Assembly: GCA_030765145.1 (NCBI GenBank)
Contig: JAVCDA010000046.1
Coordinates: 6,142 to 70,141, forward strand
Direction of reading: 5' to 3'
From: Candidatus Saelkia tenebricola
Lineage (GTDB): Bacteria; Omnitrophota; Gorgyraeia; Kaelpiales; Kaelpiaceae
Length of the DNA: 64,000 nucleotides
Part shown: one piece after another, positions 17,146 to 29,884 of the stretch
Layout of the letters: every line of letters begins with the position of its first letter
Position numbering within the stretch: position 1 is the stretch's first letter
The notes under the pieces: model-generated
What the model was told of the DNA's origin: nothing
Seen by the model: the letters and a program-made list of their open reading frames with translations, nothing else
The model's database searches: none
Program-made: the position numbers and the translations under genes

Positions 17146-17877
17146 ATGAGGAATCTTAAACTTATTCTTGAGTATGATGGTACAAATTTTATTGGTTGGC
17201 AAAGACAAAAGAAAGGCTCTAGTATTCAGGGTGAAATCGAGAGGGTTTTAGAAAAAATATTACATCAGGAAGTAAGATTGATTTCCTCTGGTAGAACAGA
17301 TGCAGGAGTGCATGCTAAATTTCAGGTGGCTAATTTTAAAGCCCGGAGTTTAATCTCTGCGCAAGATATCAGAAGAGCATTAAATTCATTATTGCCTAAA
17401 GATATCAGAATAAAAAAAGCAGAAGATGTAGAAGAAGATTTTCACGCTCGTTTCTGTGTTCAAAGTAAGATTTATAAGTATCATATCTATTTAGGAGAGC
17501 ATGTGTCTCCGTTTATATCCAAGTATGTATGGCATGTGCCTTTTGAGCTAAATTATTCCGTTATATTAAAGGAAATGAATTGTCTTTTAGGCTGGCATGA
17601 TTTTGCTAAATTTCAAGCTGTGGGGAGCAGGATAAAGAATACATCCAGGTGTATTAGTAATGTGGGTTTTAAAAAAAGTGGTTATTTTTATGAATTTACA
17701 ATAGAGGCTAATGGTTTTTTGTATAAAATGGTTAGGTTAATTGTAGGTACGTTGATTGAGGTGGGAAGGGGTAAATTTGATAGTGGCAGAATTGCTTCAT
17801 TGCTTAGGGGGGACGATGTTAAAAGAGGTTCTGTAGCTCCTCCTCAAGGTTTATTTTTATGGAAAGTAATTTATTGA
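17146..17877 (+). CDS. truA: tRNA pseudouridine(38-40) synthase TruA
   Basis: 'GRTDAGVHA' catalytic Asp motif; 243 aa. Confidence 0.9.
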   Translation: MRNLKLILEYDGTNFIGWQRQKKGSSIQGEIERVLEKILHQEVRLISSGRTDAGVHAKFQVANFKARSLISAQDIRRALNSLLPKDIRIKKAEDVEEDFHARFCVQSKIYKYHIYLGEHVSPFISKYVWHVPFELNYSVILKEMNCLLGWHDFAKFQAVGSRIKNTSRCISNVGFKKSGYFYEFTIEANGFLYKMVRLIVGTLIEVGRGKFDSGRIASLLRGDDVKRGSVAPPQGLFLWKVIY

Positions 17878-18665
17878 AAAAAACGGCTGCATTTTATCTT
17901 CAGGTTTTCCTTATAAAAATGGGGTGGAAGCGCTTCTGGGAAGGCATATATTATAGCAAAATGTTGGAATATCAGCTTGTTCTTAAGGAGTTTGATTTTG
18001 CTAAAAATTGTAAAGTTCTTGATGTTGGCCCGGGGAAGAGTTTTCTACCCTTTTATTGGATTTTTAGAGGTCAAGAAGTATGGCTGGTGGATAATGGGCA
18101 ATTCTATCCTGATTTTGATAAATATTATCATAAAGTTATGAAGCAGAAATTTTCATCCTTGAAAGAAAAAATAAGTATAATTTGGGGTAATTTTTTAGAA
18201 ATTGATTTTCCAACAAATTATTTTGATATTATTTGTGCTATCTCAACACTGGAACATTTCCAGTCTTCAGATGATATAAAAGCAGTAATGAGGTTAGCTT
18301 CTCTTCTAAAAAAAGGGGGCAAATGCATTATTAGTCTTCCTTTTTCTCAAAGCGGAACTAAAGAGTCGATTCTGACAGCAGATGAAGGAGGATATTCCTA
18401 TTTTCAAAGAGATTATGATTTAAGTTGCGTTTATGCCAGAATTATAGAACGTGCGGGTTTAAAGTTAAAATATTTTACTATAATCGGCGAAAGATTACCT
18501 TGTTTAGGAAAGATTTTCTTTTTTCAAAAACCTTTGTCTAATTTTAAGCCTTTTTGGACAATTTTTTTGACAAGTCTATTTTGGAAAGTTTATTATAAAG
18601 GAAAGACAAAAGAAGTAAAACAGTTTAAATATCCTGGTGTAATAATATTAGTTCTTGAAAAGTAA
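17859..18665 (+). CDS. class I SAM-dependent methyltransferase-like protein
   Basis: Motif I-like 'VLDVGPGKSF' and a post-II-like 'ISTLEHF'. Weak assignment. Overlaps the end of truA. Confidence 0.45.
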   Translation: MESNLLKKTAAFYLQVFLIKMGWKRFWEGIYYSKMLEYQLVLKEFDFAKNCKVLDVGPGKSFLPFYWIFRGQEVWLVDNGQFYPDFDKYYHKVMKQKFSSLKEKISIIWGNFLEIDFPTNYFDIICAISTLEHFQSSDDIKAVMRLASLLKKGGKCIISLPFSQSGTKESILTADEGGYSYFQRDYDLSCVYARIIERAGLKLKYFTIIGERLPCLGKIFFFQKPLSNFKPFWTIFLTSLFWKVYYKGKTKEVKQFKYPGVIILVLEK

Positions 18666-19612
18666 TGAAGATAGAAAAGATATCAATAGTTATACCGGCT
18701 TTTAATGAAGAAGAAAGCCTTGTTCCTCTATTAATCGAAATAAATAATTTGTTTAAAAAGCTGCAATATCAATATGAGGTGATAGTTATAGATGATGGAA
18801 GTTGTGATTCTACCTGGGATGTTATCCTTGATTTTTCCCGTAATTCAAGCGGAAATATCAAAGGAGTACGTTTAATAAAAAACTATGGACAGACGGCTGC
18901 AATTCAAGTTGGTTTTAAGGAGTCTTGCGGTGATGTTATAATTGTGATGGATGCTGATGGGCAGAATGATCCTAATGATATTGGTTATCTCATAGCCGAA
19001 ATTGAGAAAGGTTATGATATTGTCAGTGGTTGGAGACATCAAAGAAAAGACTTTTTTTTAAGAGTAATAATGTCTTGGATGGGAAATTTTTTAGTCAAAA
19101 AAATTAGTGGGCTTGATTTGCATGATGTTGGATGCAGTCTTAAAGCATATAGAAAAGAATATATTAAAGATGTAAAGCTTTTAGGTGAAATGCATAGAAT
19201 ATTGCTGATATATTTGGCTGAAAGGGGAGCGCGTGTTAAGGAATTAAAAGTTAATCATAGGAAAAGAATAAATGGTAAATCTAAATATGGTATGGGTAGA
19301 GTGGTGAAGCTTGTTATGGATTTGATATTGTATAAGTTTTTTACCAAGTTTGCTTCTAAGCCAATCTATATGTTCGGAGGATTAGGGTTTTTTAGTATTC
19401 TTTTTTCTTTTTTGTTAGGGTTGTTTGTAATTTATAGAAAAATTGCATTTCATGGGGCTTGGATCAGCCCTTTGTTTTTTATCTCTGTAACATTTCTTAC
19501 AGTAGGTATTATTTTTATAATGTTAGGTATACTGGCTGAGCTGCTGGTCAGGATATACTATCAAACTCAATACGAGCTTCCTTATCAGGTGAAAGAGAAA
19601 GTAAATTCTTAA
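18665..19612 (+). CDS. GT2 glycosyltransferase, polyprenol-phosphate sugar synthase-like (Dpm1/ArnC-like) with C-terminal TM helices
   Basis: 'VIPAFNEEESL', 'VIDDGSCD' and 'DADGQNDP' (DxD) motifs, with two C-terminal hydrophobic helices. Confidence 0.8.
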   Translation: MKIEKISIVIPAFNEEESLVPLLIEINNLFKKLQYQYEVIVIDDGSCDSTWDVILDFSRNSSGNIKGVRLIKNYGQTAAIQVGFKESCGDVIIVMDADGQNDPNDIGYLIAEIEKGYDIVSGWRHQRKDFFLRVIMSWMGNFLVKKISGLDLHDVGCSLKAYRKEYIKDVKLLGEMHRILLIYLAERGARVKELKVNHRKRINGKSKYGMGRVVKLVMDLILYKFFTKFASKPIYMFGGLGFFSILFSFLLGLFVIYRKIAFHGAWISPLFFISVTFLTVGIIFIMLGILAELLVRIYYQTQYELPYQVKEKVNS

Positions 19613-19615
19613 ATA

Positions 19616-21478
19616 ATGTGCGGTATACTGGGTGTAACGGGGCAGAATATTAAAGAAGATAAGGAGAGATTTGACGGGGCTCTTGATTTGTTATTTCATC
19701 GTGGTTCTGATGAAAAAGGAAGTTTCTACGGTGAAAATTTTATATTTGGTTCTCAACGTTTGAAAATTATAGATTTTAAGGATGGACAACAGCCTCTTTC
19801 GAACGAAAACAGGGATTTAGAAATAGTATTTAACGGTGAAATATATAATTATCTGAGATTAAGAGGTGATTTAGAAACTAAAGGATATCGTTTTAAGTCT
19901 AATACAGATACAGAAGTGATTCTACATCTTTACGAGGAAGAAGGGATAGAGTGCCTTGGGCATCTTGAAGGTATGTTTGCATTTGCAATATATGATAAAA
20001 GAAGAAAGATCTGTTTTTTAAGTAGAGATAGGTTCGGGATAAAACCGCTTTTTTATTGGACTGATAAAGAAAAACTTATTTTTTCTTCTGAAATAAAGCC
20101 TATTTTAAAAATATTGGGAAGGAAACCTGCTGTATCTATTGAAGCTTTAAATCTATATTTTTGGCTGGATTATGTTCCTTCTCCTTATACGATATATCAG
20201 GGTGTTCAGTCTCTTTTACCCAGTCATTATCTGGTTTTTTCTAATCAAGGGGTAAAGCGTAATAAATATTATAATTTGGAGATAAATGAATTTAAAAAAA
20301 CAACTATTAAAGAAGCTGTTGTTTCGGTTAGAAGTGTTTTGGGGGAGAGTGTTAAAAGGCATCTTGTTTCTGATACGGAAGTGGGATTGCTTTTAAGCGG
20401 GGGTATTGATTCCAGTATTTTAGCATATGAGATGTCGCGTAATCTTAATGAATTTAAAACATTCAATATGGGTTTTAAAAATTCCGGATATGACGAGTCT
20501 AAATATGCAGATATTGTTTCGAAGCAGTTTAATTCAGAACATAAATCAAAAGAATTTCCATCATTAGAGAGCATGCGTGATTTGGAAAAAATTGTTTCTT
20601 GTATGGAACAACCGTTTGCAGACCATTCAGTAATACCAACGTACTTAATATCTGAGTTTTCTTCTGATTATCTTAAAGTTGTTCTTGCAGGAGATGGCGG
20701 AGATGAAGTGTTTTTAGGATATCAGACTTATATCGCTCATAAATTGTTTAATTGGTTTCAATTTATACCTAGGAATCTTCGAAGAGAAATATTAAAAGCC
20801 ATACTTGTTTTCTTACCTAAATCCGATCGTTACTTCAGTCTGGATTTTTGCCTGGGAAGATTATTAAGGTCTCAAAGTAGGCAGGATATTAAAAGGCATA
20901 TTCACTGGATGGAAAGTTTTGGAGAGGAAAGAAAAGTTTTACTCGGATCGGCATATAGAAATATTGAAGAACAATATTTGAATTTTACAGAAAGTACCTT
21001 TATTACAACAGACAATCTTATGGGCCGAATTCAACAATTTGATATTTTTACATATCTTAGTAATGATATTTTATACAAGAGTGATTTTGCCGGGATGATG
21101 AATTCACAAGAGGTAAGAGTTCCTTATTTAGATCATAAAGTGGTTGAACTCGGACTTTCTTTACCGTATGAGTTTAAATTGAAAGGTTTAAGAGGAACAA
21201 AATATGTTTTAAAACGAGCATATCGAGATGTTTTGCCACGCAGTGTATTAATGAGGAAAAAAATGGGTTTTAGTTTACCTACGGCAAGCTTATTTAGAAA
21301 AGAACTAAAAAGTTTGATGCTGTCTTTTATTGAAGATAAAAATATGGGGGATTATTTAAATGTGGATTATATAAAAAAAATATTTAATGAGCATTTGCGT
21401 CATGAATCAAATAATCGTAAAATGCTTTGGAATATTTTAATATTTTTTCTTTGGTATAAAAATAATGAAACTAAATAA
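19616..21478 (+). CDS. asnB: asparagine synthetase (glutamine-hydrolysing) family amidotransferase
   Basis: 'MCGILGV' N-terminal nucleophile Cys2 and the 'SGGIDSS' PP-loop. Confidence 0.85.
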   Translation: MCGILGVTGQNIKEDKERFDGALDLLFHRGSDEKGSFYGENFIFGSQRLKIIDFKDGQQPLSNENRDLEIVFNGEIYNYLRLRGDLETKGYRFKSNTDTEVILHLYEEEGIECLGHLEGMFAFAIYDKRRKICFLSRDRFGIKPLFYWTDKEKLIFSSEIKPILKILGRKPAVSIEALNLYFWLDYVPSPYTIYQGVQSLLPSHYLVFSNQGVKRNKYYNLEINEFKKTTIKEAVVSVRSVLGESVKRHLVSDTEVGLLLSGGIDSSILAYEMSRNLNEFKTFNMGFKNSGYDESKYADIVSKQFNSEHKSKEFPSLESMRDLEKIVSCMEQPFADHSVIPTYLISEFSSDYLKVVLAGDGGDEVFLGYQTYIAHKLFNWFQFIPRNLRREILKAILVFLPKSDRYFSLDFCLGRLLRSQSRQDIKRHIHWMESFGEERKVLLGSAYRNIEEQYLNFTESTFITTDNLMGRIQQFDIFTYLSNDILYKSDFAGMMNSQEVRVPYLDHKVVELGLSLPYEFKLKGLRGTKYVLKRAYRDVLPRSVLMRKKMGFSLPTASLFRKELKSLMLSFIEDKNMGDYLNVDYIKKIFNEHLRHESNNRKMLWNILIFFLWYKNNETK

Positions 21479-23180
21479 ATATTTTCTATTATTGGTAATG
21501 TTTTTTGTGATTTATTCTATCGTGGGTAGCTTAATCATTAAAAGCGATGACCATCTTTCAACGACTGATGCTCCTAATCATGCAGTTTTTTGTCTGCGGG
21601 ACTATCAGAACACTCTAGAAGTGTTTAGAGATATAGATATTAATTTTTTGAAAAATATACAGCGTTTAAAAGATATATTTACAAAAGGAGTTATTTACTG
21701 GCCAAAGTTTGTATATTTAACATCTTTTCCTTTAATGTATTTTTCAGAATCAACGGTTGCCGCATTAAAGATTACAAATGTTTTTTATCTATTTTTATTA
21801 ATGGTTTTCAGCTACCTTTTAACTTTAAAACTGGGAGGGAAGAGGAATGAAGGAGTTTGGGTTGCATCTTTAATGCCTCTTTATCCTTTTATTTCTAAAT
21901 CTATTTCAAGTTACGGTTTGGATTTTCCTCTTACTGTGAGCGTGGTGATATTCTTATATCTGTTGTTAAAAACCGAAGGCTTTAAAAACACGTTTTATTC
22001 TTTACTTTTAGGTTTAATTTTAGGAATATCTACTCTTATTAAAGGACAGGTTCTTTTATTCGTATCAGCTCCTTTATTAGTTTATTTCATAAATTCTGTT
22101 ATCAGAGAAATCAAGGGGAGGAAGGATTTAATATCTATATTTGTGATATTTGCTAATCTAGTGATATTTGGTATATTTTCTTTTCAAATAGGTAGTTTAT
22201 GGTGGGGGGGTAAATTAGATGAAATATTGCTTTCTTTTGGAGAACATGTGGGTAGCGGAATTAAACACCTGGAAAGTTATCCTCAGGAGGCTTATGGCAG
22301 TCTGAGTTATTATTTTTTTTACTTTAAATATTTATTTTTAAAAGGTTTAGGTCCGTTACTTATGATTATTACAGGTGCGTTTTGCTTAAGATATATTTTT
22401 GTTTTTAAAGATAAGGGGAAGAGGATTTTATTAGTTTGGGTATTGGTGCCGTTTTTTATTTTTTCAGTTTTGTTAGTAGTACATCAGCTAAGATTTATAA
22501 TGCCGATTGTGCCTGCAATGGGCATAATGACTGTTTTAGGTTCCAGGTTTCGAAAAAATAGTCTAACTTTTATTCTGAGATTTATAATGCTATCTTTGGC
22601 ATGTTTCCAGTTGTTTCTGTTATTTGGCGGTATTAACAAAGGGCGTTTCCGTAGTTTGTTTAGTTTTGATGGAGATATGATATTAAATAAGGACAATCCG
22701 AATGCAAGTATAGCTGAATATTTTATAAATGAATTAAAAAATAATTTTTCAGAAGATATATATAAAGTTGTAATAATAAGATTTGCTGATATAGAAGACG
22801 GTCCTATGGGGCTGCAGTTTTGGATAGAAAATAAAGGCTACCAGCATGGAGTCAGGTTGATAACTCATGATATATTCGATCAATGGAATGCAGCATATCA
22901 ATGGTTAAGCGAAGAAGGTAAGTATATGATACTATTTATAGGAAATGAAGAATTTAATTTTGACAATAAAGATCTTTGGGATAAAAACGAGATTTTAAAA
23001 ATTGGTAAGCAATGGATGCCTAGGTTTGAAGCGTTCAAAAACTGTTCGCAGACAAAGGAATTATTAGATAGCATATTGCCTGTTGTTAAGAGTAATTCTA
23101 ATTATGTCTCAAGTTTTAGCTGCGAAGATTATTATTATTGTGAAATTTATGAATATAGCAATGTTCAACAATCTTATTGA
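21465..23180 (+). CDS. multi-pass membrane protein, GT-C fold glycosyltransferase-like (ArnT/PMT, GT39/GT83-like), with a C-terminal soluble domain
   Basis: About 11 predicted TM helices, an acidic first periplasmic loop 'SDDHLSTTDAP', and a roughly 200-aa hydrophilic C-terminus. Assignment by architecture only. Confidence 0.4.
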   Translation: MKLNKYFLLLVMFFVIYSIVGSLIIKSDDHLSTTDAPNHAVFCLRDYQNTLEVFRDIDINFLKNIQRLKDIFTKGVIYWPKFVYLTSFPLMYFSESTVAALKITNVFYLFLLMVFSYLLTLKLGGKRNEGVWVASLMPLYPFISKSISSYGLDFPLTVSVVIFLYLLLKTEGFKNTFYSLLLGLILGISTLIKGQVLLFVSAPLLVYFINSVIREIKGRKDLISIFVIFANLVIFGIFSFQIGSLWWGGKLDEILLSFGEHVGSGIKHLESYPQEAYGSLSYYFFYFKYLFLKGLGPLLMIITGAFCLRYIFVFKDKGKRILLVWVLVPFFIFSVLLVVHQLRFIMPIVPAMGIMTVLGSRFRKNSLTFILRFIMLSLACFQLFLLFGGINKGRFRSLFSFDGDMILNKDNPNASIAEYFINELKNNFSEDIYKVVIIRFADIEDGPMGLQFWIENKGYQHGVRLITHDIFDQWNAAYQWLSEEGKYMILFIGNEEFNFDNKDLWDKNEILKIGKQWMPRFEAFKNCSQTKELLDSILPVVKSNSNYVSSFSCEDYYYCEIYEYSNVQQSY

Positions 23181-26055
23181 AGCAGATTCTCATGATACTG
23201 TGCTTGTAATGATTCCTACATGGTATCCTTGGATACCTCCTATGGGGTTGGCGTATGTAGAGAGTTATTTAAATCATAAGGGGTATAATTCTCTGGTGTA
23301 TGATTTTAATGCTAAGCTTTATAACTCTGCTTGTGAAGAAGGTAAGAAGTTTTGGGATATAAGTACAATAAGCGCATTGCCTTTATCAGAAGTAGTTAGA
23401 AATATAAGTGAAAAATTTTCGGAGGAAATAGATAGGTTGGCTGGGATTTTAACAGAAAGACCGGAATCTATTATAGGTTTTTCAGTCAATTTGTTAAGTA
23501 TTCATATCGCAAGTTCTATTGCTCAAAAAATTAAGAGTAAAAATGCTAAGAAATTAATAGTTTTCGGAGGCCCTGGTTGTTTTTGGAGTTATGACAGGGA
23601 TGTGGTTCCCTTAGGGGTAGTAGATGTATTTGTAGTGGGAGAAGGGGAATTACCTTTTTATGAAGTAGTGGATAATTTTTATAAAGGGCTTGATTCATCA
23701 AACATCAAGGGTATTGTGATATATAAAGATGGGAAATTAAAAGATAATACTCCGGCTAATCCTGTTTTAGATTTAGATGAAATACCGTACCCGACATTTG
23801 AAGATTTTGATTTAGATGACTATGGTCAGGGTGAGCAGCAGGCCACATTACCGATAGGTGTAAGCAGGGGTTGCATTTCAAAATGTACTTTTTGTGTTGA
23901 TCATGTAATGTGTAATCCTTTCAGAATGAGAAGTCCTGAGCATGTAATTAAAGAGATGGAATATCATATTTCTGTTAACGGTATTAATAATTTTTCTTTT
24001 AATGATTTGCTATGTAACGGTCATCTTGGCAAGCTTGAAAAATTGTGTGACCTAATTATCAAAAGGGGTTTAAAGATTAAATGGGGTAGTTATGCTGTAG
24101 CACGAGGAGATATGCATCTAAGGCTTTTAAATAAGATGAAACAGGCGGGATGTGAGACTATTTGCTATGGGATAGAAAGCGGTTCGGATAAGATTTTAAA
24201 AATAATGAGCAAGATCTATAATTCATCCGATGCTGAAAAAGTTTTACGTCTGACGCATAAAGCGGGAATAAAAGCAACATTCAACATAATTATAGGTTAT
24301 CCTGGTGAAAGTAAAAAAGAGTTTAAGGAAACGCTTGATTTTGTTAAAAGAAATAAAAAATATATAACCAGTATAATAAATGTGTCTACGCTTTTTATAA
24401 ATCCTACAGCGTCTTTAGGAACTAATCCTGAGAAATTTAACATATATTTCCCTAAGCATCCTTCAGCATTTAGAATGGTGACATTGAAAAAACTTTTCAT
24501 TCCTCGGTACTATAAAATATTTGGAGTAAATAAACCTGTTCTAGAATTGCAAGGTATTGATTTTTCAAATTTTGTAGATAGTAATGGAAATACAAAACCT
24601 GAAAGACTAAAAAGATTAATAAAGGTTCTTAAACTTATCCATAGATTGGATTTGGTAAAATATGACCCAATTATAAACGTTTATCCTACGGAGAACAAAA
24701 GTGTTAAAAAGGCTATTAAAAATCTTAAAGAGCGCTGTAGTTTAACTTTTAAAGAAGTATCTTTAAAATGTGATTTTTTGGGTTTTGCTGCAATTTATCA
24801 TAAAAACAGGATTATAAGTTCTGGTTCCGGTTTAAATGTAGCTTTTAGAATAGGTGAAGAATGGTATGATACTTCTTGTTATTCTTGGGATATTAAGAAA
24901 ATCCGATCCAATGTTTTAAAAGTTTCTATTGCAATGGATGATATAGGAATAAAGCAGATGTGGACTTTTAAGTTTAACAAATTGGGATTGTTTTGGAAAA
25001 TAAATGGGTTTTTTAAAGAGAAAGACAACTCGCCTGATGAAATAAAATTAGGTTTACATGCTTCAACTTTATATAAATACTGGTTATCTCATCATTATGA
25101 AGGGGAATTTCCTGAACTTAATAATGAAGAATGGAGGTGTTTGCAATTTAAGCATATAAAAGAAGTTTCTGTTTTAGTTGATAAAGATGAGGATGCTGAT
25201 GTTGGTAAAATTGTGGTGAATAAAATAAAAAGCTCAGAACCTTTTTCTTTACGGTTGGAGAATCCCCTAAAACAATATAATTTTAGATTCTTAGCGTTTC
25301 AAAATTTGAGATCTAAACTTTACAGAAAAAACAATTTTAATGTTGATTTATTTATAAAATTTGAAAAAACAATTGGAAATACTAAGCTTCTTAAAAAATA
25401 TTTTATAGATAATATTAAATCCGAAAGATTGTATGTTGCTCGTAAAAACAAGGAGTTTTACATCAAAGTGCAAAGGGATGATGTTAAGTTGTATTATAAA
25501 GAAAATGAATTAACTTCTTCATATGGTGGCAATGTTTTTTTTCGTATTAATGGTGAGATTTTTGACACAACAAATGCTAAACGAGATGTTTTGGTTAAAA
25601 GTAAATTTATACAATATAAAGTGGAATGGGACAATACACCTTTAATATTACTTTGGGGTATGTGTTTAAATGAAAATAAGATGTTTTGGAATTTTGAAAT
25701 CACCTCTCAAAAAAAGTTAAAATTAGAAGAGATTCGATTTGGTATCTTTTTAAATAAGGACTATGTTAATTGGTATGCAGGTGCATTTAGAGGCATATTA
25801 CACACAATGCCGGAAAATGAAGGGCTGTTGATACCTTTAAGAAAATTTATAGGTAATAAAATATGTATAGAACCGGTTAATAAACACTTGCCGTCTGTAA
25901 CTTACTTTAAACCAAAGAAAGTTGGTTTTTTTCAAGTAGGGATTAATGATTTAAATTTGGGAGGGGGAAAATGTATCAGTACTGTCATAGAGAATATATC
26001 GCTTGATAATTGTAAACCCTTAAAATTTAGTTCCAAATTTGAATTCAAAAGATGA
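23161..26055 (+). CDS. B12-binding-domain radical SAM protein with a roughly 530-aa C-terminal extension of unknown type
   Basis: An N-terminal B12-binding-like Rossmann region, a CxxxCxxC cluster 'CISKCTFC' and the following radical-SAM core, then roughly 530 aa with no motif I recognise. The start is uncertain (ATG 23104, 23149 or 23161; the ORF opens at 23083 and overlaps the upstream gene). Confidence 0.7.
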   Translation: MFNNLIEADSHDTVLVMIPTWYPWIPPMGLAYVESYLNHKGYNSLVYDFNAKLYNSACEEGKKFWDISTISALPLSEVVRNISEKFSEEIDRLAGILTERPESIIGFSVNLLSIHIASSIAQKIKSKNAKKLIVFGGPGCFWSYDRDVVPLGVVDVFVVGEGELPFYEVVDNFYKGLDSSNIKGIVIYKDGKLKDNTPANPVLDLDEIPYPTFEDFDLDDYGQGEQQATLPIGVSRGCISKCTFCVDHVMCNPFRMRSPEHVIKEMEYHISVNGINNFSFNDLLCNGHLGKLEKLCDLIIKRGLKIKWGSYAVARGDMHLRLLNKMKQAGCETICYGIESGSDKILKIMSKIYNSSDAEKVLRLTHKAGIKATFNIIIGYPGESKKEFKETLDFVKRNKKYITSIINVSTLFINPTASLGTNPEKFNIYFPKHPSAFRMVTLKKLFIPRYYKIFGVNKPVLELQGIDFSNFVDSNGNTKPERLKRLIKVLKLIHRLDLVKYDPIINVYPTENKSVKKAIKNLKERCSLTFKEVSLKCDFLGFAAIYHKNRIISSGSGLNVAFRIGEEWYDTSCYSWDIKKIRSNVLKVSIAMDDIGIKQMWTFKFNKLGLFWKINGFFKEKDNSPDEIKLGLHASTLYKYWLSHHYEGEFPELNNEEWRCLQFKHIKEVSVLVDKDEDADVGKIVVNKIKSSEPFSLRLENPLKQYNFRFLAFQNLRSKLYRKNNFNVDLFIKFEKTIGNTKLLKKYFIDNIKSERLYVARKNKEFYIKVQRDDVKLYYKENELTSSYGGNVFFRINGEIFDTTNAKRDVLVKSKFIQYKVEWDNTPLILLWGMCLNENKMFWNFEITSQKKLKLEEIRFGIFLNKDYVNWYAGAFRGILHTMPENEGLLIPLRKFIGNKICIEPVNKHLPSVTYFKPKKVGFFQVGINDLNLGGGKCISTVIENISLDNCKPLKFSSKFEFKR

Positions 26056-27221
26056 AAAAAAGAATTTTTATTTGTTTATTATTGTTGCTTGTGTTAGTTT
26101 CAACCGCGCGATATATTCGCAGGGCTCCCAAGAGAGATTATTCTGATTTTCATGTAGTGTATTCTACGGCTCAAAGATTTATCCAGGGAGAAGAAATTTA
26201 TACATTTGAGGGGGATGTTTCTTATTATAAATATCCTCCTTTTTATGCTTTTTTAACATCTTTTCTGGCATTTTCAAGTGAATTTAAAGCAGCTGTTCTC
26301 TGGCACTTTTTAAATTGGATATTTTTATTTTTAATTTTTTTCTCTTGGTTAAATATACTTGATTCTAAGAAAAGGATTTTAATTTCAATGCTGGTTTTTA
26401 TATTCAGCTTCCGTTTTATTTTGGAAAATATGGATCAGGGGCAGGCAAATATATCATTTTTAGCGTTTAGTAGCATTGCTTTCTATTTTTATTTTAAAGG
26501 AAAACGAAATATATCTGCTTTGTTTTTAGCCGTTTCCATTCTTTCAAAATATCTTTCCATTGTATTTATACCATTTTTTATTATACGAAAAGAGTATAAA
26601 TATGCATTGAGGACTTTGGTGTTTTTAGTAATATTATATTTTTCCCCGGTTATTCTAACAGGTGTGGAAAGAATGTATCATTTGATGATGCAAAATATAC
26701 AATTTTTATTTAGCAGTTCTTTAGATAATTATTCGATTACTTGTTATCCCAATCAGTCTCTTTTAGCGGCTTTAAGAAGAATGTTTTCTTTAAATCAGTG
26801 GTATCCTACCCAGGTGTATGCTTTGTCGGATAAAACTATCTCCTTTATATTTTTTATGGCAAGTTTCATTCTGTTATTTTTAGCATATATACCAAGACGG
26901 GATATAAGGATTAATATAGGGTTGATTTCAGGCTTAATTCCGCTTTTAAATCCCAATGGCTGGAAGAATTCGTTTATTTGGCTTATTGTACCTAGTATGA
27001 TTTTATTTCAGCAGATATTTGAAAAAAGAGTAAAGAATAAATTCTTAATAACAATGGTTATCTTGTCATTTGTTTTTACCTCATGTACTAGTGAATTCTT
27101 TGTTTATTGGTGGGCGAAAGATTGGTTTGAAATTTATTCGTTTGTTACTTATGGTGCATTATTCCTATATTTTGCATTACTAAAATTTAATCTTAGCAAT
27201 AAAATCATATCTGAGAAATAG
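26052..27221 (+). CDS. DUF2029/GT87-family membrane glycosyltransferase-like protein
   Basis: N-terminal 'DF...Y...GEEIY...YKYPPFYAFL' motif typical of DUF2029 (PimE/AftC-like polyprenol-P-sugar-dependent transferases); multi-TM. Confidence 0.5.
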   Translation: MKKRIFICLLLLLVLVSTARYIRRAPKRDYSDFHVVYSTAQRFIQGEEIYTFEGDVSYYKYPPFYAFLTSFLAFSSEFKAAVLWHFLNWIFLFLIFFSWLNILDSKKRILISMLVFIFSFRFILENMDQGQANISFLAFSSIAFYFYFKGKRNISALFLAVSILSKYLSIVFIPFFIIRKEYKYALRTLVFLVILYFSPVILTGVERMYHLMMQNIQFLFSSSLDNYSITCYPNQSLLAALRRMFSLNQWYPTQVYALSDKTISFIFFMASFILLFLAYIPRRDIRINIGLISGLIPLLNPNGWKNSFIWLIVPSMILFQQIFEKRVKNKFLITMVILSFVFTSCTSEFFVYWWAKDWFEIYSFVTYGALFLYFALLKFNLSNKIISEK

Positions 27222-27329
27222 AGGTTTTCCAGAACCAGATTCATTGCATATTTTGAATTGACTTGGCTAATCTAATGGTGCATTATTAGATTATGTTGCA
27301 AAGAAGCAGCAATTTGAATTTTGGTTTTC

Positions 27330-27367
27330 AAAGCAACTCGTATTTTTCAGAGTTGCTTTTTTGTTTT
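27330..27367 (+). terminator. Rho-independent terminator (stem AAAGCAACTC / GAGTTGCTTT, 10-nt loop, T-tract)
   Basis: Perfect 10-bp inverted repeat followed by TTTTTTGTTTTT, located downstream of the glycan cluster. Confidence 0.75.
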
Positions 27368-27382
27368 TAAGGAGGATTAAAA

Positions 27383-29713
27383 ATGAGTGATGCAGGAAAA
27401 ACAAAAGCAGAGATTATAAATGAGTTGAATAGGTTGCGTCGGAAGATTGCTAGATTTAAGAGGATGGAAGTTGGTTTTAGAAAGACAGAGAAAGAGTTAA
27501 AAGAAAGCGAGAAGCAATATCGTCAATTAGCAAAAACTTCTATGGAAGCTTCTGCTATTTATGGGGAAGGTAAGATCTTAGCAGCAAACCAGAAATTTGT
27601 GCAGATGTTTGGGTATAAAAAATCAGAATTAATTGGGATGGATATTTTAAATTTGTTTGCACATGAATATCGAAATTCGGTAAAGAAAAATATTTTTTCT
27701 GAATATAAAAAGTTATATCAGGTAGTTGGTCTTAAGAAAGATGGCCCAAGTTTTATAGCCGAGATATATACATATAAAAGATGCAAAGCAAGAGTCATTG
27801 TGATTTGTGATGTCGTTGGGCAAAAGGAAAAAGGAGAAGAATTTATTGAATTTAAAACTATATCTGATGTTGCTCAATATGGTGCTGCTATTGTAGATAT
27901 TAGCGGTAAGATTGTGTATCTCAATAAATCGTTTGCTGATATGCATGGATATAAAGAGAGAGAGCTTGTCGGCAAACATTTTTCTGTGTTACATTCTAAA
28001 AATCAAATGAGACGGGTTAATGAATTGTTCACTATGATTAAAAAAAGTCAGGGGTATGCTAATGAGAAAGTGGGGCATATTAGAAAAAACGGAACTGTTT
28101 TTCTAACTTCAATGAGTGGGAGCCTTATAAAAGATGATAAAGGAATCCCGGTTTTTATGGCTGCTACAGCTGTTGATATATCAGAAGATAATAAGGTAGA
28201 GAGGGTTCTTCAGGAAGAGCGGGTACAGCTTCTTTCGATATTTGATAGCATTGATGAGGTGATTTATGTGGCAGATCCGGTTACTTACCGTATTCTTTAT
28301 ATGAACAAATATTTTGAAAATATATTGGGTAAAAATTCTGTAGGCAAATTGTGTTATCAGGAATTTCAAGGTTTAAAACAGCCGTGCAATTTTTGTACCA
28401 ATAAGATAATTTTACGGAAAAAAGATGAGCCGTATAGATGGGAATACTACAACCCTTTTTTAAACAAGCATTATGCCATAGCCGACCGTATTATAAAATG
28501 GTCTGATGGGAGAGATGTGAGATTTGAAATTGCAATGGATATAACCAATCTCAAAAAAGCAGAAGAAGAAGTGCGGAGAGAGAAAGAGTTTGCGGAAGCT
28601 CTTATTGAAACAGCACAGGTTATTGTATTGGTTTTGGATCCCAAGGGGAAAATTATCAGTTTCAATCCTTATATGGAGGAATTGTCTGGATATACGATAG
28701 ATCAGGTTCGCAATAAGAGTTGGTTTAATACGTTTTTGCCAAAACAGGATAGAGTCAAAACACGTCGATTATTCTTAAAATCAATAGACGGTATTCAGAC
28801 TAAAGGCAATATAAATGCTATTATTATTAAGGATGGTAAACGGCGGCATATAGAATGGCATGATAAAACTCTCAAAGATAAACAAGGTAAGACAATTGGT
28901 TTATTAGCTACCGGTTATGATGTTACTGAACGCAGAGAAGCAGAAAGGGTATTGATAAAATATAAGGATGGGTTGGAGCAAGCTGTTACGAGAAGGACTC
29001 AAGAATTAGTAAAAACTCAAAAAAAACTCGAAGATGCAAAACGTCTTTCTGATATCGGTATGCTTGCTGCTACGGTTGCGCACGAGTTGAACAACCCCCT
29101 AGGTGTTATAAAAACAGCGGTTTTTAATATAAGGAGAAAAGTAGAGTCTCGAGTTATAGATACTCATCTTCTAAATATAGAGAAGAAGATTTCAGAAAGC
29201 GTACGTATTATAAATAATCTTTTAAGTTATTCTCATATAAAAATTCCGCGGTATGAAAACATAGCGGTTCTTAAGATATTAGAGGAATGCCTTATTCATT
29301 GCAAGGAAAGGTATTCGAGGTTGAATTTAAAAATTAAAAAGGATTACAGTTGTAAGGAAAATAAAACTATTGAAGCAGACTCTCTTCATATGAACGAGCT
29401 TTTCTCAAATATTTTGGAAAATTCTTTTCAGTCTTTTAATAATAAAAATGGGAGGTTAAGTATAATTGTCAATTGTGATAATAAAATGAATGAATTTAAT
29501 ATGGTTGTTAAAGATAACGGAAAAGGGTTAAGTAAAAAAGATTTATCAAAAGTATTTGAACCATTTTTCACAAATAAAGCAAAAGGGATAGGTTTAGGTC
29601 TTACGGTGTGTAAAGAGGTTGTAGCCCTTCATAAAGGAACAATAAGTATCTCAAGTAAAGAAGGAGTAGGTACAACTGTTTTTGTAAGTTTGCCGATTAG
29701 TAAAAAGAGTTGA
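27383..29713 (+). CDS. multi-PAS sensor histidine kinase
   Basis: Several PAS-like repeats, a HisKA H-box 'AHELNNPL', and HATPase_c G-boxes 'KDNGKGL' and 'GIGLGL'. No response regulator is adjacent. Confidence 0.85.
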   Translation: MSDAGKTKAEIINELNRLRRKIARFKRMEVGFRKTEKELKESEKQYRQLAKTSMEASAIYGEGKILAANQKFVQMFGYKKSELIGMDILNLFAHEYRNSVKKNIFSEYKKLYQVVGLKKDGPSFIAEIYTYKRCKARVIVICDVVGQKEKGEEFIEFKTISDVAQYGAAIVDISGKIVYLNKSFADMHGYKERELVGKHFSVLHSKNQMRRVNELFTMIKKSQGYANEKVGHIRKNGTVFLTSMSGSLIKDDKGIPVFMAATAVDISEDNKVERVLQEERVQLLSIFDSIDEVIYVADPVTYRILYMNKYFENILGKNSVGKLCYQEFQGLKQPCNFCTNKIILRKKDEPYRWEYYNPFLNKHYAIADRIIKWSDGRDVRFEIAMDITNLKKAEEEVRREKEFAEALIETAQVIVLVLDPKGKIISFNPYMEELSGYTIDQVRNKSWFNTFLPKQDRVKTRRLFLKSIDGIQTKGNINAIIIKDGKRRHIEWHDKTLKDKQGKTIGLLATGYDVTERREAERVLIKYKDGLEQAVTRRTQELVKTQKKLEDAKRLSDIGMLAATVAHELNNPLGVIKTAVFNIRRKVESRVIDTHLLNIEKKISESVRIINNLLSYSHIKIPRYENIAVLKILEECLIHCKERYSRLNLKIKKDYSCKENKTIEADSLHMNELFSNILENSFQSFNNKNGRLSIIVNCDNKMNEFNMVVKDNGKGLSKKDLSKVFEPFFTNKAKGIGLGLTVCKEVVALHKGTISISSKEGVGTTVFVSLPISKKS

Positions 29714-29727
29714 TAAAAGGTTTTATA

Positions 29728-29758: not shown

Positions 29759-29785
29759 TCATATCTATGTTATTAAATTAACCAT

Positions 29786-29859
29786 GCGCCTGTGGCTCAA
29801 TTGGATAGAGCGGCTGGCTACGGACCAGTAGATTGGGGGTTCGAGTCCCTCCAGGCGTA
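29786..29859 (+). tRNA. tRNA-Arg (anticodon ACG)
   Basis: Hand-folded cloverleaf: acceptor GCGCCTG/CAGGCGT (G1-U72), D-arm GCTC/GAGC, anticodon stem GCTGG/CCAGT with loop CTACGGA, T-arm GGGGG-TTCGAGT-CCCTC; 74 nt. Confidence 0.8.
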
Positions 29860-29884
29860 TTTTCTGGTGATAATAAATTGTTAG

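Follow-up and report, generated by a model that had tools for sequence, protein, structure and literature searches.

In characterised O-antigen exporters, the C-terminal domain of Wzt (Wzt_C) binds the modified terminus of the glycan, is needed for export and can act in trans (PMC9445017). For class-B (cobalamin-type) radical S-adenosylmethionine (SAM) enzymes, of which C-methylation is the commonest reaction, the C-terminal domains described in a 2026 review are small (helix bundle or PDZ), and none is a module of the carbohydrate-binding type (PMC12931638). The gene considered here lies in a window of 64,000 nucleotides (nt), the whole stretch of DNA that was analysed (Candidatus Saelkia tenebricola, assembly GCA_030765145.1, contig JAVCDA010000046.1, positions 6,142 to 70,141), and encodes a radical SAM (rSAM) core of the B12 type followed by two copies of a module with a predicted galactose-mutarotase-like fold. 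The enzyme class and the fold are known; the domain family and the recurrent architecture in which they are combined are new. With a probability of roughly 55%, the modules are glycan-recognition domains by which a radical SAM tailoring enzyme is held on its lipid-linked glycan.

The core comprises an N-terminal Rossmann-type B12-like domain, a radical SAM barrel and a C-terminal helical subdomain, which is the same order of Rossmann-type domain and CxxxCxxC barrel as in QCMT (9CCB), TokK, TsrM, GenK, Fom3, PhpK, HpnJ and BchE. The CxxxCxxC motif, together with a Radical_SAM match above the Pfam gathering score (PF04055, residues 234-395, 68.3 bits against a cut-off of 29.5), places the protein in the radical SAM superfamily. 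An earlier interpretation of this DNA made without database searches (the sequence-only reading) had recognised a B12-type radical SAM core with its cluster motif in 'RGCISKCTFC'; this identification holds for the radical SAM part, with Radical_SAM above its cut-off, and very probably for the B12 type, with the B12-binding match below its own. NCBIfam models for class-B enzymes (TIGR03975, PhpK, ApyD, HpnJ, the ladderane-associated B12-rSAM, BchE and QCMT) align over residues ~80-430. No NCBIfam model of a named class-B subfamily reaches its cut-off for the core: the best, TIGR03975 for C-methyltransferases of ribosomally synthesised and post-translationally modified peptides (RiPPs), scores 131.7 against 281.85 bits, the remaining models miss theirs by more, and the core likewise falls outside rSAM_ocin_1, PhpK, ApyD, HpnJ, the ladderane B12-rSAM, BchE, QCMT, HpnR and the GenK-like enzymes. 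Among solved structures, the closest in sequence is 9CCB (E = 1.7e-10), which is QCMT, a class I B12-dependent radical SAM C-methyltransferase (PMC12931638). The best NCBIfam and PDB matches are all in class B and cobalamin dependence is predicted; the core very probably belongs to this class and to none of its named subfamilies. Its nearest named relatives are Candidatus Omnitrophota.

Short relatives in the same radical SAM clade (487-495 amino acids, aa) align through residue ~520 of the window protein, and the core is therefore taken as residues 1-520 and the extension as beginning at ~521. At residues ~521-964 (~445 aa, nt ~24721-26052), the extension is shorter than the ~530 aa from residue 460 proposed in the sequence-only reading, which set the boundary ~60 residues too early and, in treating the region as a single domain, missed the internal duplication of a ~210-aa module. 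Residues ~545-648 and ~776-879 share 25% identity in an internal BLASTP comparison (E = 3e-9), and an iterated profile (jackhmmer) bounds the modules at 521-740 and 761-961. Both have retained most of the family-conserved positions (36 of 45 columns in module 1 and 39 of 45 in module 2, with a family median of 37), and neither has decayed. Module 2 is orthologous to the second module of a related protein, P0121, and is no recent copy of module 1. There is no Pfam or NCBIfam match in the extension, no hydrophobic segment and no Cys cluster. The sequence-only reading had described the region as lacking a recognisable motif, transmembrane (TM) helices or Cys clusters, and Pfam, NCBIfam, hydrophobicity and the translation agree with it; the hidden Markov model search that it had proposed for the extension matched no known domain family in Pfam or NCBIfam.

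The fold of the module was read from an AlphaFold2 (AF2) model built on an alignment; a single-sequence AF2 model of the whole C-terminal part was unusable (predicted local distance difference test, pLDDT, 33). Structural matches of the alignment-based model are galactose-mutarotase-like supersandwiches, and Foldseek agrees (best E = 5e-6, TM-score 0.45-0.64). The structures matched include aldose epimerases, domains of glycoside hydrolase (GH) families GH2, GH15, GH31, GH36, GH38, GH94 and GH97, many polysaccharide lyases, OpgG/OpgD and cyclic beta-1,2-glucan synthase, all at 5-12% sequence identity. On the predicted topology and its significant structural similarity, the module belongs to the galactose mutarotase-like superfamily, as a new sequence family in a fold that is strongly, although not exclusively, tied to carbohydrate binding and processing. 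It differs from the galactose mutarotase-like domains of carbohydrate-active enzymes (CAZymes) in having no Pfam or PDB profile match and in being shorter than the epimerases. In addition, it is partnered in the cytoplasm with proteins of biosynthesis or export, whereas the CAZyme supersandwiches are partnered with degradative glycosidases. In alignment A1, conservation reaches 90% or more at T37 and W85 only, and the positions conserved across the family are rich in Trp, Tyr and Phe together with Thr, Ser, Gln, Asn and Arg. Such a composition is typical of sugar-binding sites. In module 1 of the window protein, the conserved residues are W568, W576, Q599, W601, Y638, W641, F650, N701 and R709.

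When 1.84 billion cluster representatives were scanned exhaustively with HMMER, 137 had the module at E <= 1e-3 and 40 at E <= 1e-10; profile mapping gave 257 full-length copies. The taxon-named proteins are all from Candidatus Omnitrophota. A word-indexed homologue search with the C-terminal part returned P0001 alone, the same kind of search with the module profile returned zero relatives, and a scan of genome contigs with the C-terminal part yielded zero confirmed loci. The module profile matched no PDB sequence at E <= 10. Among 38 modules compared with Pfam at E <= 1 there was no recurring family, and the scattered single matches were taken as noise; Glyco_hydro_57, at E = 0.011, was one of them. 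Aldose_epim matched none of the 38 at E <= 1, and the modules are not members of that family by sequence. The family is therefore outside Pfam, NCBIfam, Aldose_epim and Wzt_C. A sub-threshold match to DUF5074 occurs in one module of P0122 (residues 884-953; E = 1e-5, 25.2 against 27.2 bits) and was not seen in the other modules scanned. The literature consulted, coverage of which was incomplete, describes neither a radical SAM enzyme that bears such a module nor supersandwich repeats on a TagH/Wzt ATPase.

The commonest architecture in the family is an ATP-binding cassette (ABC) ATPase of ~235 aa followed by two to five tandem modules, with total lengths of ~690, 905, 1130 and 1355 aa. These ATPases have their best matches to TagH and Wzt/RfbE (1e-44 to 1e-56), and JGI names them polysaccharide/polyol-phosphate exporter ATPases. 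Glycosyltransferases (GTs) of the GT-C type with PMT or PMT_2 domains carry one to three C-terminal modules. Modules are also found before SPASM radical SAM domains, after B12-rSAM cores and in composite B12-plus-SPASM proteins. One polypeptide, P0127 (1856 aa; RKY36779.1), contains an ABC ATPase, five modules and a C-terminal rSAM-SPASM domain, and so links exporter and tailoring enzyme directly. P0160 (1881 aa; MCM8813220.1) consists of approximately nine modules and nothing else that is recognisable. Stand-alone module proteins of ~200-290 aa are also present. In several of these (P0162, P0188, P0210, P0223, P0238, P0247 and P0248), a conserved, non-hydrophobic N-terminal leader of ~40 residues (residues 1-45) has the pattern '..KFKKHL..GGLFYAL.RG.KY..FL.KK..' and may be an amphipathic helix for membrane association or docking.

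The gene clusters that encode these proteins elsewhere are larger. Cluster L006 contains an ABC-2 permease gene followed directly by that of a module-bearing ATPase (P0128, with four modules); it also encodes a SPASM rSAM whose module is N-terminal, a B12-rSAM of 484 aa, GT4, GT2 and AsnB. In L003, modules are carried by an ATPase, by an rSAM (N-terminally) and by the B12-rSAM P0008; a triple SPASM rSAM, a methyltransferase, a double B12-rSAM, two GT1 genes and another ABC/ABC-2 pair are also present. L008 encodes an ATPase with three modules, a SPASM rSAM and a B12-rSAM each with a module, and six more rSAMs, and in L007 seven rSAMs are followed by a PMT_2 protein with two modules. In L003, L006 and L008, the exporter ATPase and the adjoining rSAMs are all module-bearing and lie near GT1, GT2, GT4 and AsnB genes. 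The B12-rSAMs of L006 and L003 belong to the clade of the window core, with 38-42% identity over the whole core.

Two further features of these clusters can be recorded. Radical SAM genes are extraordinarily dense in them (L003 3414-7268 and 11174-14332, L007 240-8017 and L008 8001-18322), with, for example, a 1284-aa protein built of three rSAM-SPASM units, a tandem double B12-rSAM of 1052 aa and, beside module-bearing exporters or GT-C proteins, seven to eight consecutive rSAM genes. Moreover, a gene for a flavin adenine dinucleotide-dependent amine-oxidase/DAO-type protein precedes ABC-2 permease or ATPase genes in L006 (1158-2465) and L008 (2580-3884), which are independent exporter clusters with modules.

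The combination seen in the window protein recurs in its relatives. A core with two modules is also encoded by P0121 (980 aa, in the two independent ENA assemblies L004 and L005) and P0157 (991 aa), and a core with one module by P0002, P0003, P0004, P0006, P0008, P0022, P0031, P0041, P0064 and P0071; in P0023 and P0065 the module is N-terminal. One-module forms of 660-820 aa are common in this clade, which runs counter to the premise of the sequence-only reading that B12-rSAMs have only short tails. The closest relative, P0001 on contig L001 (~76% DNA identity, syntenic from AsnB to recR), genuinely stops after module 1 and has no module 2. Identity to the window protein in core and module is 77% and 63% for P0001, 63% and 33% for P0002, and 56% and 29% for P0003; for P0121 it is 63% in the core and 30% and 26% in the two modules. 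The modules diverge about twice as fast as the attached core, as would fit specificity-determining glycan-recognition domains.

Comparison with the Wzt_C domains of the Escherichia coli O9a, R. terrigena and A. aeolicus WzmWzt transporters shows both likeness and difference. The module is likewise all-beta in its predicted fold and C-terminal on an ATPase of the Wzt/TagH type. A Wzt_C-like placement, after the nucleotide-binding domain and beside an ABC-2 permease, is found for P0128 in L006 and for P0136, P0143 and P0122; it does not apply to the window protein, in which the module follows the rSAM core. The trans activity of Wzt_C has a counterpart in the stand-alone forms of the module. On the other hand, Wzt_C is a jelly roll (PMC9445017), whereas the module is modelled as a ~210-aa galactose-mutarotase-like supersandwich. 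Wzt_C occurs as a single copy, whereas the modules occur as two to five in tandem and also on rSAM enzymes and GT-C transferases, as is undescribed for Wzt_C. No sequence match to Wzt_C was found in the window protein, in the 38 modules (E <= 1) or in the ABC fusions scanned. The most economical reading is that the module is a functional analogue of the Wzt carbohydrate-binding domain, non-homologous to it and of a different fold, and this is suggested by the use of the same module family by exporter ATPases, GT-C transferases and SPASM rSAMs in Omnitrophota.

Taken together, the Wzt-like position, the carbohydrate-type fold, the fusions to glycosyltransferases, the glycan clusters, the fast evolution and the conserved residues argue for glycan recognition. 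The window protein would then be a cytoplasmic class-B radical SAM tailoring enzyme with non-catalytic modules whose ligand is a lipid-linked glycan, bound at its sugar chain or at the modified end of that chain. The ArnC-like GT2 of the operon may assemble this glycan on the inner side of the membrane, and binding by the modules would hold the radical SAM active site on its substrate. The likeliest reaction, judged from class membership only, would be methylation of an unactivated sugar carbon, after which the glycan would be passed to the GT-C and GT87 transferases across the membrane. The sequence-only reading had suggested that the extension was either a substrate-recognition or a carrier-binding module; the fold, the mobile fusions and the operon partners speak for the former, as substrate recognition in a glycan pathway. 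That reading is supported in part; the polyprenol-linked ligand and the C-methylation or rearrangement that it had proposed are conjectural.

Several observations weigh against this explanation. The window has no Wzm/Wzt pair and no second module-bearing protein. The sugar-binding site on the modules is putative, and the fold is also matched by proteins that are not concerned with carbohydrate, namely YidC P1, the PBCV-1 capsid protein P19 and the chloroplast NDH subunit PnsB2. The SPASM-rich clusters L007 and L008 would also fit peptide or lipid chemistry. As for the enzyme, the B12-binding match (PF02310, residues 96-169) is sub-threshold, at 24.5 bits against a cut-off of 32.1, although PF02310 is on record in close relatives of the window rSAM; and cobalamin use and methyl transfer are assumptions, because no rSAM subfamily model reaches its cut-off. 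Lastly, the modules of the rSAMs are not especially similar to those of the exporter encoded in the same cluster, and modules are instead positionally orthologous across genomes. Shared specificity within a cluster is therefore unsupported by sequence, and the possibility that rSAM modules are recent copies of the exporter modules of their own cluster is rejected by the positional orthology. This comparison is neutral to slightly negative for glycan recognition.

The alternative that best survives is that the modules bind no sugar and are protein docking or oligomerisation domains, joining rSAMs, GT-C transferases and the exporter ATPase in a membrane-associated complex. This is unlikely, but it would account for the sharing of the module by several proteins per cluster in L003, L006 and L008 and for the module-only arrays of up to nine copies (P0160). 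YidC P1 and the viral capsid protein have the same fold with no sugar-binding role, Wzt carbohydrate-binding domains also dimerise (PMC9445017), and the conserved non-hydrophobic leader of the stand-alone modules is a possible docking helix. Nevertheless, the window and its syntenic relatives have one module-bearing protein each, leaving a docking module no evident counterpart. The fold is overwhelmingly associated with CAZymes, and this and the conserved Trp/Tyr/Asn/Gln/Arg signature point instead to sugar; fast divergence between orthologues would be unusual for a conserved protein interface.

It is less likely again that the pathway is not a glycan pathway and that the rSAM acts on a peptide, in the manner of RiPP maturation, or on a lipid of the hopanoid or ladderane kind, the modules recognising this substrate or else a carrier protein. 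In NCBIfam the core comes closest to RiPP C-methyltransferases, PhpK, HpnJ and the ladderane-associated B12-rSAM, the enzyme of the nearest solved structure, QCMT, modifies a protein, and SPASM radical SAM enzymes are numerous in the related clusters. However, those NCBIfam matches are all far below the family cut-offs, and no gene for a precursor peptide can be seen between the genes, which overlap tightly. In addition, the conserved operon partners are glycan enzymes (ArnC-like GT2, GT-C, GT87 and AsnB), and the module is fused to exporters of the polysaccharide/teichoic-acid type and to PMT-type transferases.

A catalytic role for the modules, as mutarotase-like, epimerase-like or glycan-cleaving domains of a bifunctional protein, is very unlikely. 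The fold is that of aldose epimerases and many glycan-processing enzymes, but no member matches Aldose_epim or any catalytic Pfam family at E <= 1, and at ~210 aa the module is short beside the 290-340 aa of epimerases. Two to five diverged copies in tandem on an ABC ATPase typify binding modules rather than enzymes, and no acid or His pair is invariant, T37 and W85 alone being at least 90% conserved. Finally, there is next to no chance that the long open reading frame (ORF) is an assembly or frameshift artefact joining two genes, an outcome that the sequence-only reading had allowed for: nothing was found in its favour save the stop after module 1 in the closest relative on L001, which falls exactly at a domain boundary and is part of a 4.4-kb indel, more than a dozen one-module fusions exist, and P0121 and P0157 share the core-plus-two-module frame in independent metagenome assemblies, so that the artefact is excluded and the fusion is genuine.

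A wider proposal can be put forward tentatively, although it is more probably wrong than right: in Omnitrophota, a phylum-specific 'address-domain' system would use one fast-evolving module to couple Wzm/Wzt-type exporters, GT-C transferases and batteries of B12 and SPASM rSAMs to the same surface glycan, with export gated by recognition of the radical-installed marks. Polysaccharides with such extensive radical tailoring would make up a new class, and the window protein would be the minimal version of the system, with reader and writer in one polypeptide. Omnitrophota are largely uncultured, very small and possibly host-dependent bacteria, and surface structures are likely to be central to their lifestyle. 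To our knowledge, the radical SAM tailoring of polysaccharides is poorly explored, and we know of no account of how such enzymes find polymeric or lipid-linked substrates. A shared recognition module would give a sequence handle (at least 137 clusters) for finding such pathways, would offer a testable parallel to cap recognition by Wzt and would be a way into the surface glycans of the phylum. It would also fill an annotation gap, as neither Pfam nor NCBIfam at present covers these regions, and 'ABC transporter ATP-binding protein' and 'radical SAM protein' are the only names given to the proteins.

The features of the window that concern the gene and its operon are collected in Table 1.

Table 1. 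Positions of the radical SAM gene, its domains and the neighbouring operon genes (nt of the window)
Feature	Position	Strand	Basis or remark
Class I SAM methyltransferase	17859..18665	+	Pfam Methyltransf_11/25/23; position conserved in L002, L004
ArnC/GtrB-like GT2 polyprenyl-phosphate sugar transferase	18665..19612	+	Pfam Glycos_transf_2; TM segments at 233-300
AsnB-type glutamine amidotransferase	19616..21478	+	Pfam Asn_synthase, GATase_7
571-aa multi-TM GT-C-like protein	21465..23180	+	Pfam PMT_2 E = 0.0046, below cut-off; at least 8 hydrophobic segments
Complete gene, B12-type radical SAM enzyme followed by two modules	23161..26055	+	964 aa plus stop
Class-B radical SAM core (very probable), residues 1-520	23161..24720	+	Pfam, NCBIfam, short relatives, nearest structure 9CCB
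CxxxCxxC motif, radical SAM [4Fe-4S] cluster, C238-x3-C242-x2-C245 in 'RGCISKCTFC'	23872..23895	+	Read from translation
Module 1, residues ~521-740, predicted galactose-mutarotase-like beta-supersandwich, new sequence family	24721..25380	+	
Module 2, residues ~761-964, diverged second copy, 25% identical to module 1	25441..26052	+	
GT87 (DUF2029-type GT-C) membrane glycosyltransferase	26052..27221	+	Pfam GT87 4.5e-19; in L002, absent in L001

The rSAM gene occupies an uninterrupted ORF on the + strand that runs from 23083 (TTG) or 23161 (ATG) to 26055. The start that best fits the N-termini of orthologues is ATG 23161 (P0004 'MFDKIITAPAHH', window protein 'MFNNLIEADSHD'), and on this basis alone the starts at ATG 23104, GTG 23140 and ATG 23149 were rejected. 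No convincing Shine-Dalgarno sequence lies upstream of any candidate start of the gene. The sequence-only reading had left the choice among 23104, 23149 and 23161 to ribosome-binding sites and orthologues; the former proved uninformative and the latter favoured 23161. Its description of the gene as sandwiched by overlaps between two membrane GT-C-like genes is confirmed: the start overlaps the upstream 571-aa gene by 20 nt (TGA 23178-23180), and the stop is shared with the start of the GT87 gene in an ATGA overlap at 26052.

The genes of the operon overlap or abut, and truA and a PAS kinase flank them. The order methyltransferase, GT2, AsnB, PMT_2 and rSAM (with module) is conserved in L001, in L002, where GT87 follows, and in L004/L005. 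The GT2 protein matches the NCBIfam ArnC equivalog over its full length (2.8e-59), at 200.7 bits against a cut-off of 529, and by this sequence comparison is ArnC-like and not ArnC; it also matches PgfS and AglJ, both of which are polyprenyl-phosphate sugar transferases. For AsnB, TIGR01536 is above its cut-off and the exopolysaccharide-associated amidotransferase TIGR03108 is next best. PMT_2 is on record for the orthologues of the 571-aa GT-C-like protein in L002 and L004. An ArnC-like GT2 with C-terminal TM helices and GT-C transferases in one operon are common to this locus and to the ArnC/ArnT and GtrB/GtrC pathways, whereas AsnB, a SAM methyltransferase and a module-bearing rSAM are present in the window operon and in none of the known Arn or Gtr systems. 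In L004 (11996-13372), a 458-aa protein with no Pfam hit on record takes the place of GT87 after the two-module rSAM, and may be a divergent GT-C.

Homology between the window and L001 breaks off at nt 25353 (residue 731) and picks up again at 29721, a short way ahead of tRNA-Arg, so that module 2, GT87 and the PAS histidine kinase form a 4.4-kb indel between close relatives (25353-29721; compare L001 4532-4647). The kinase is a 776-aa triple-PAS protein. The left edge of the indel is exactly at a domain boundary and the right edge just upstream of tRNA-Arg(ACG) at 29785-29860. Over the window as a whole (1-64000), every 2-kb bin has a strongly positive GC skew and cumulative skew rises monotonically. 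The GC content is ~30-38%, and of the 55 ORFs with 150 aa or more about 51 lie on the + strand, an unusually strict co-orientation across 64 kb.

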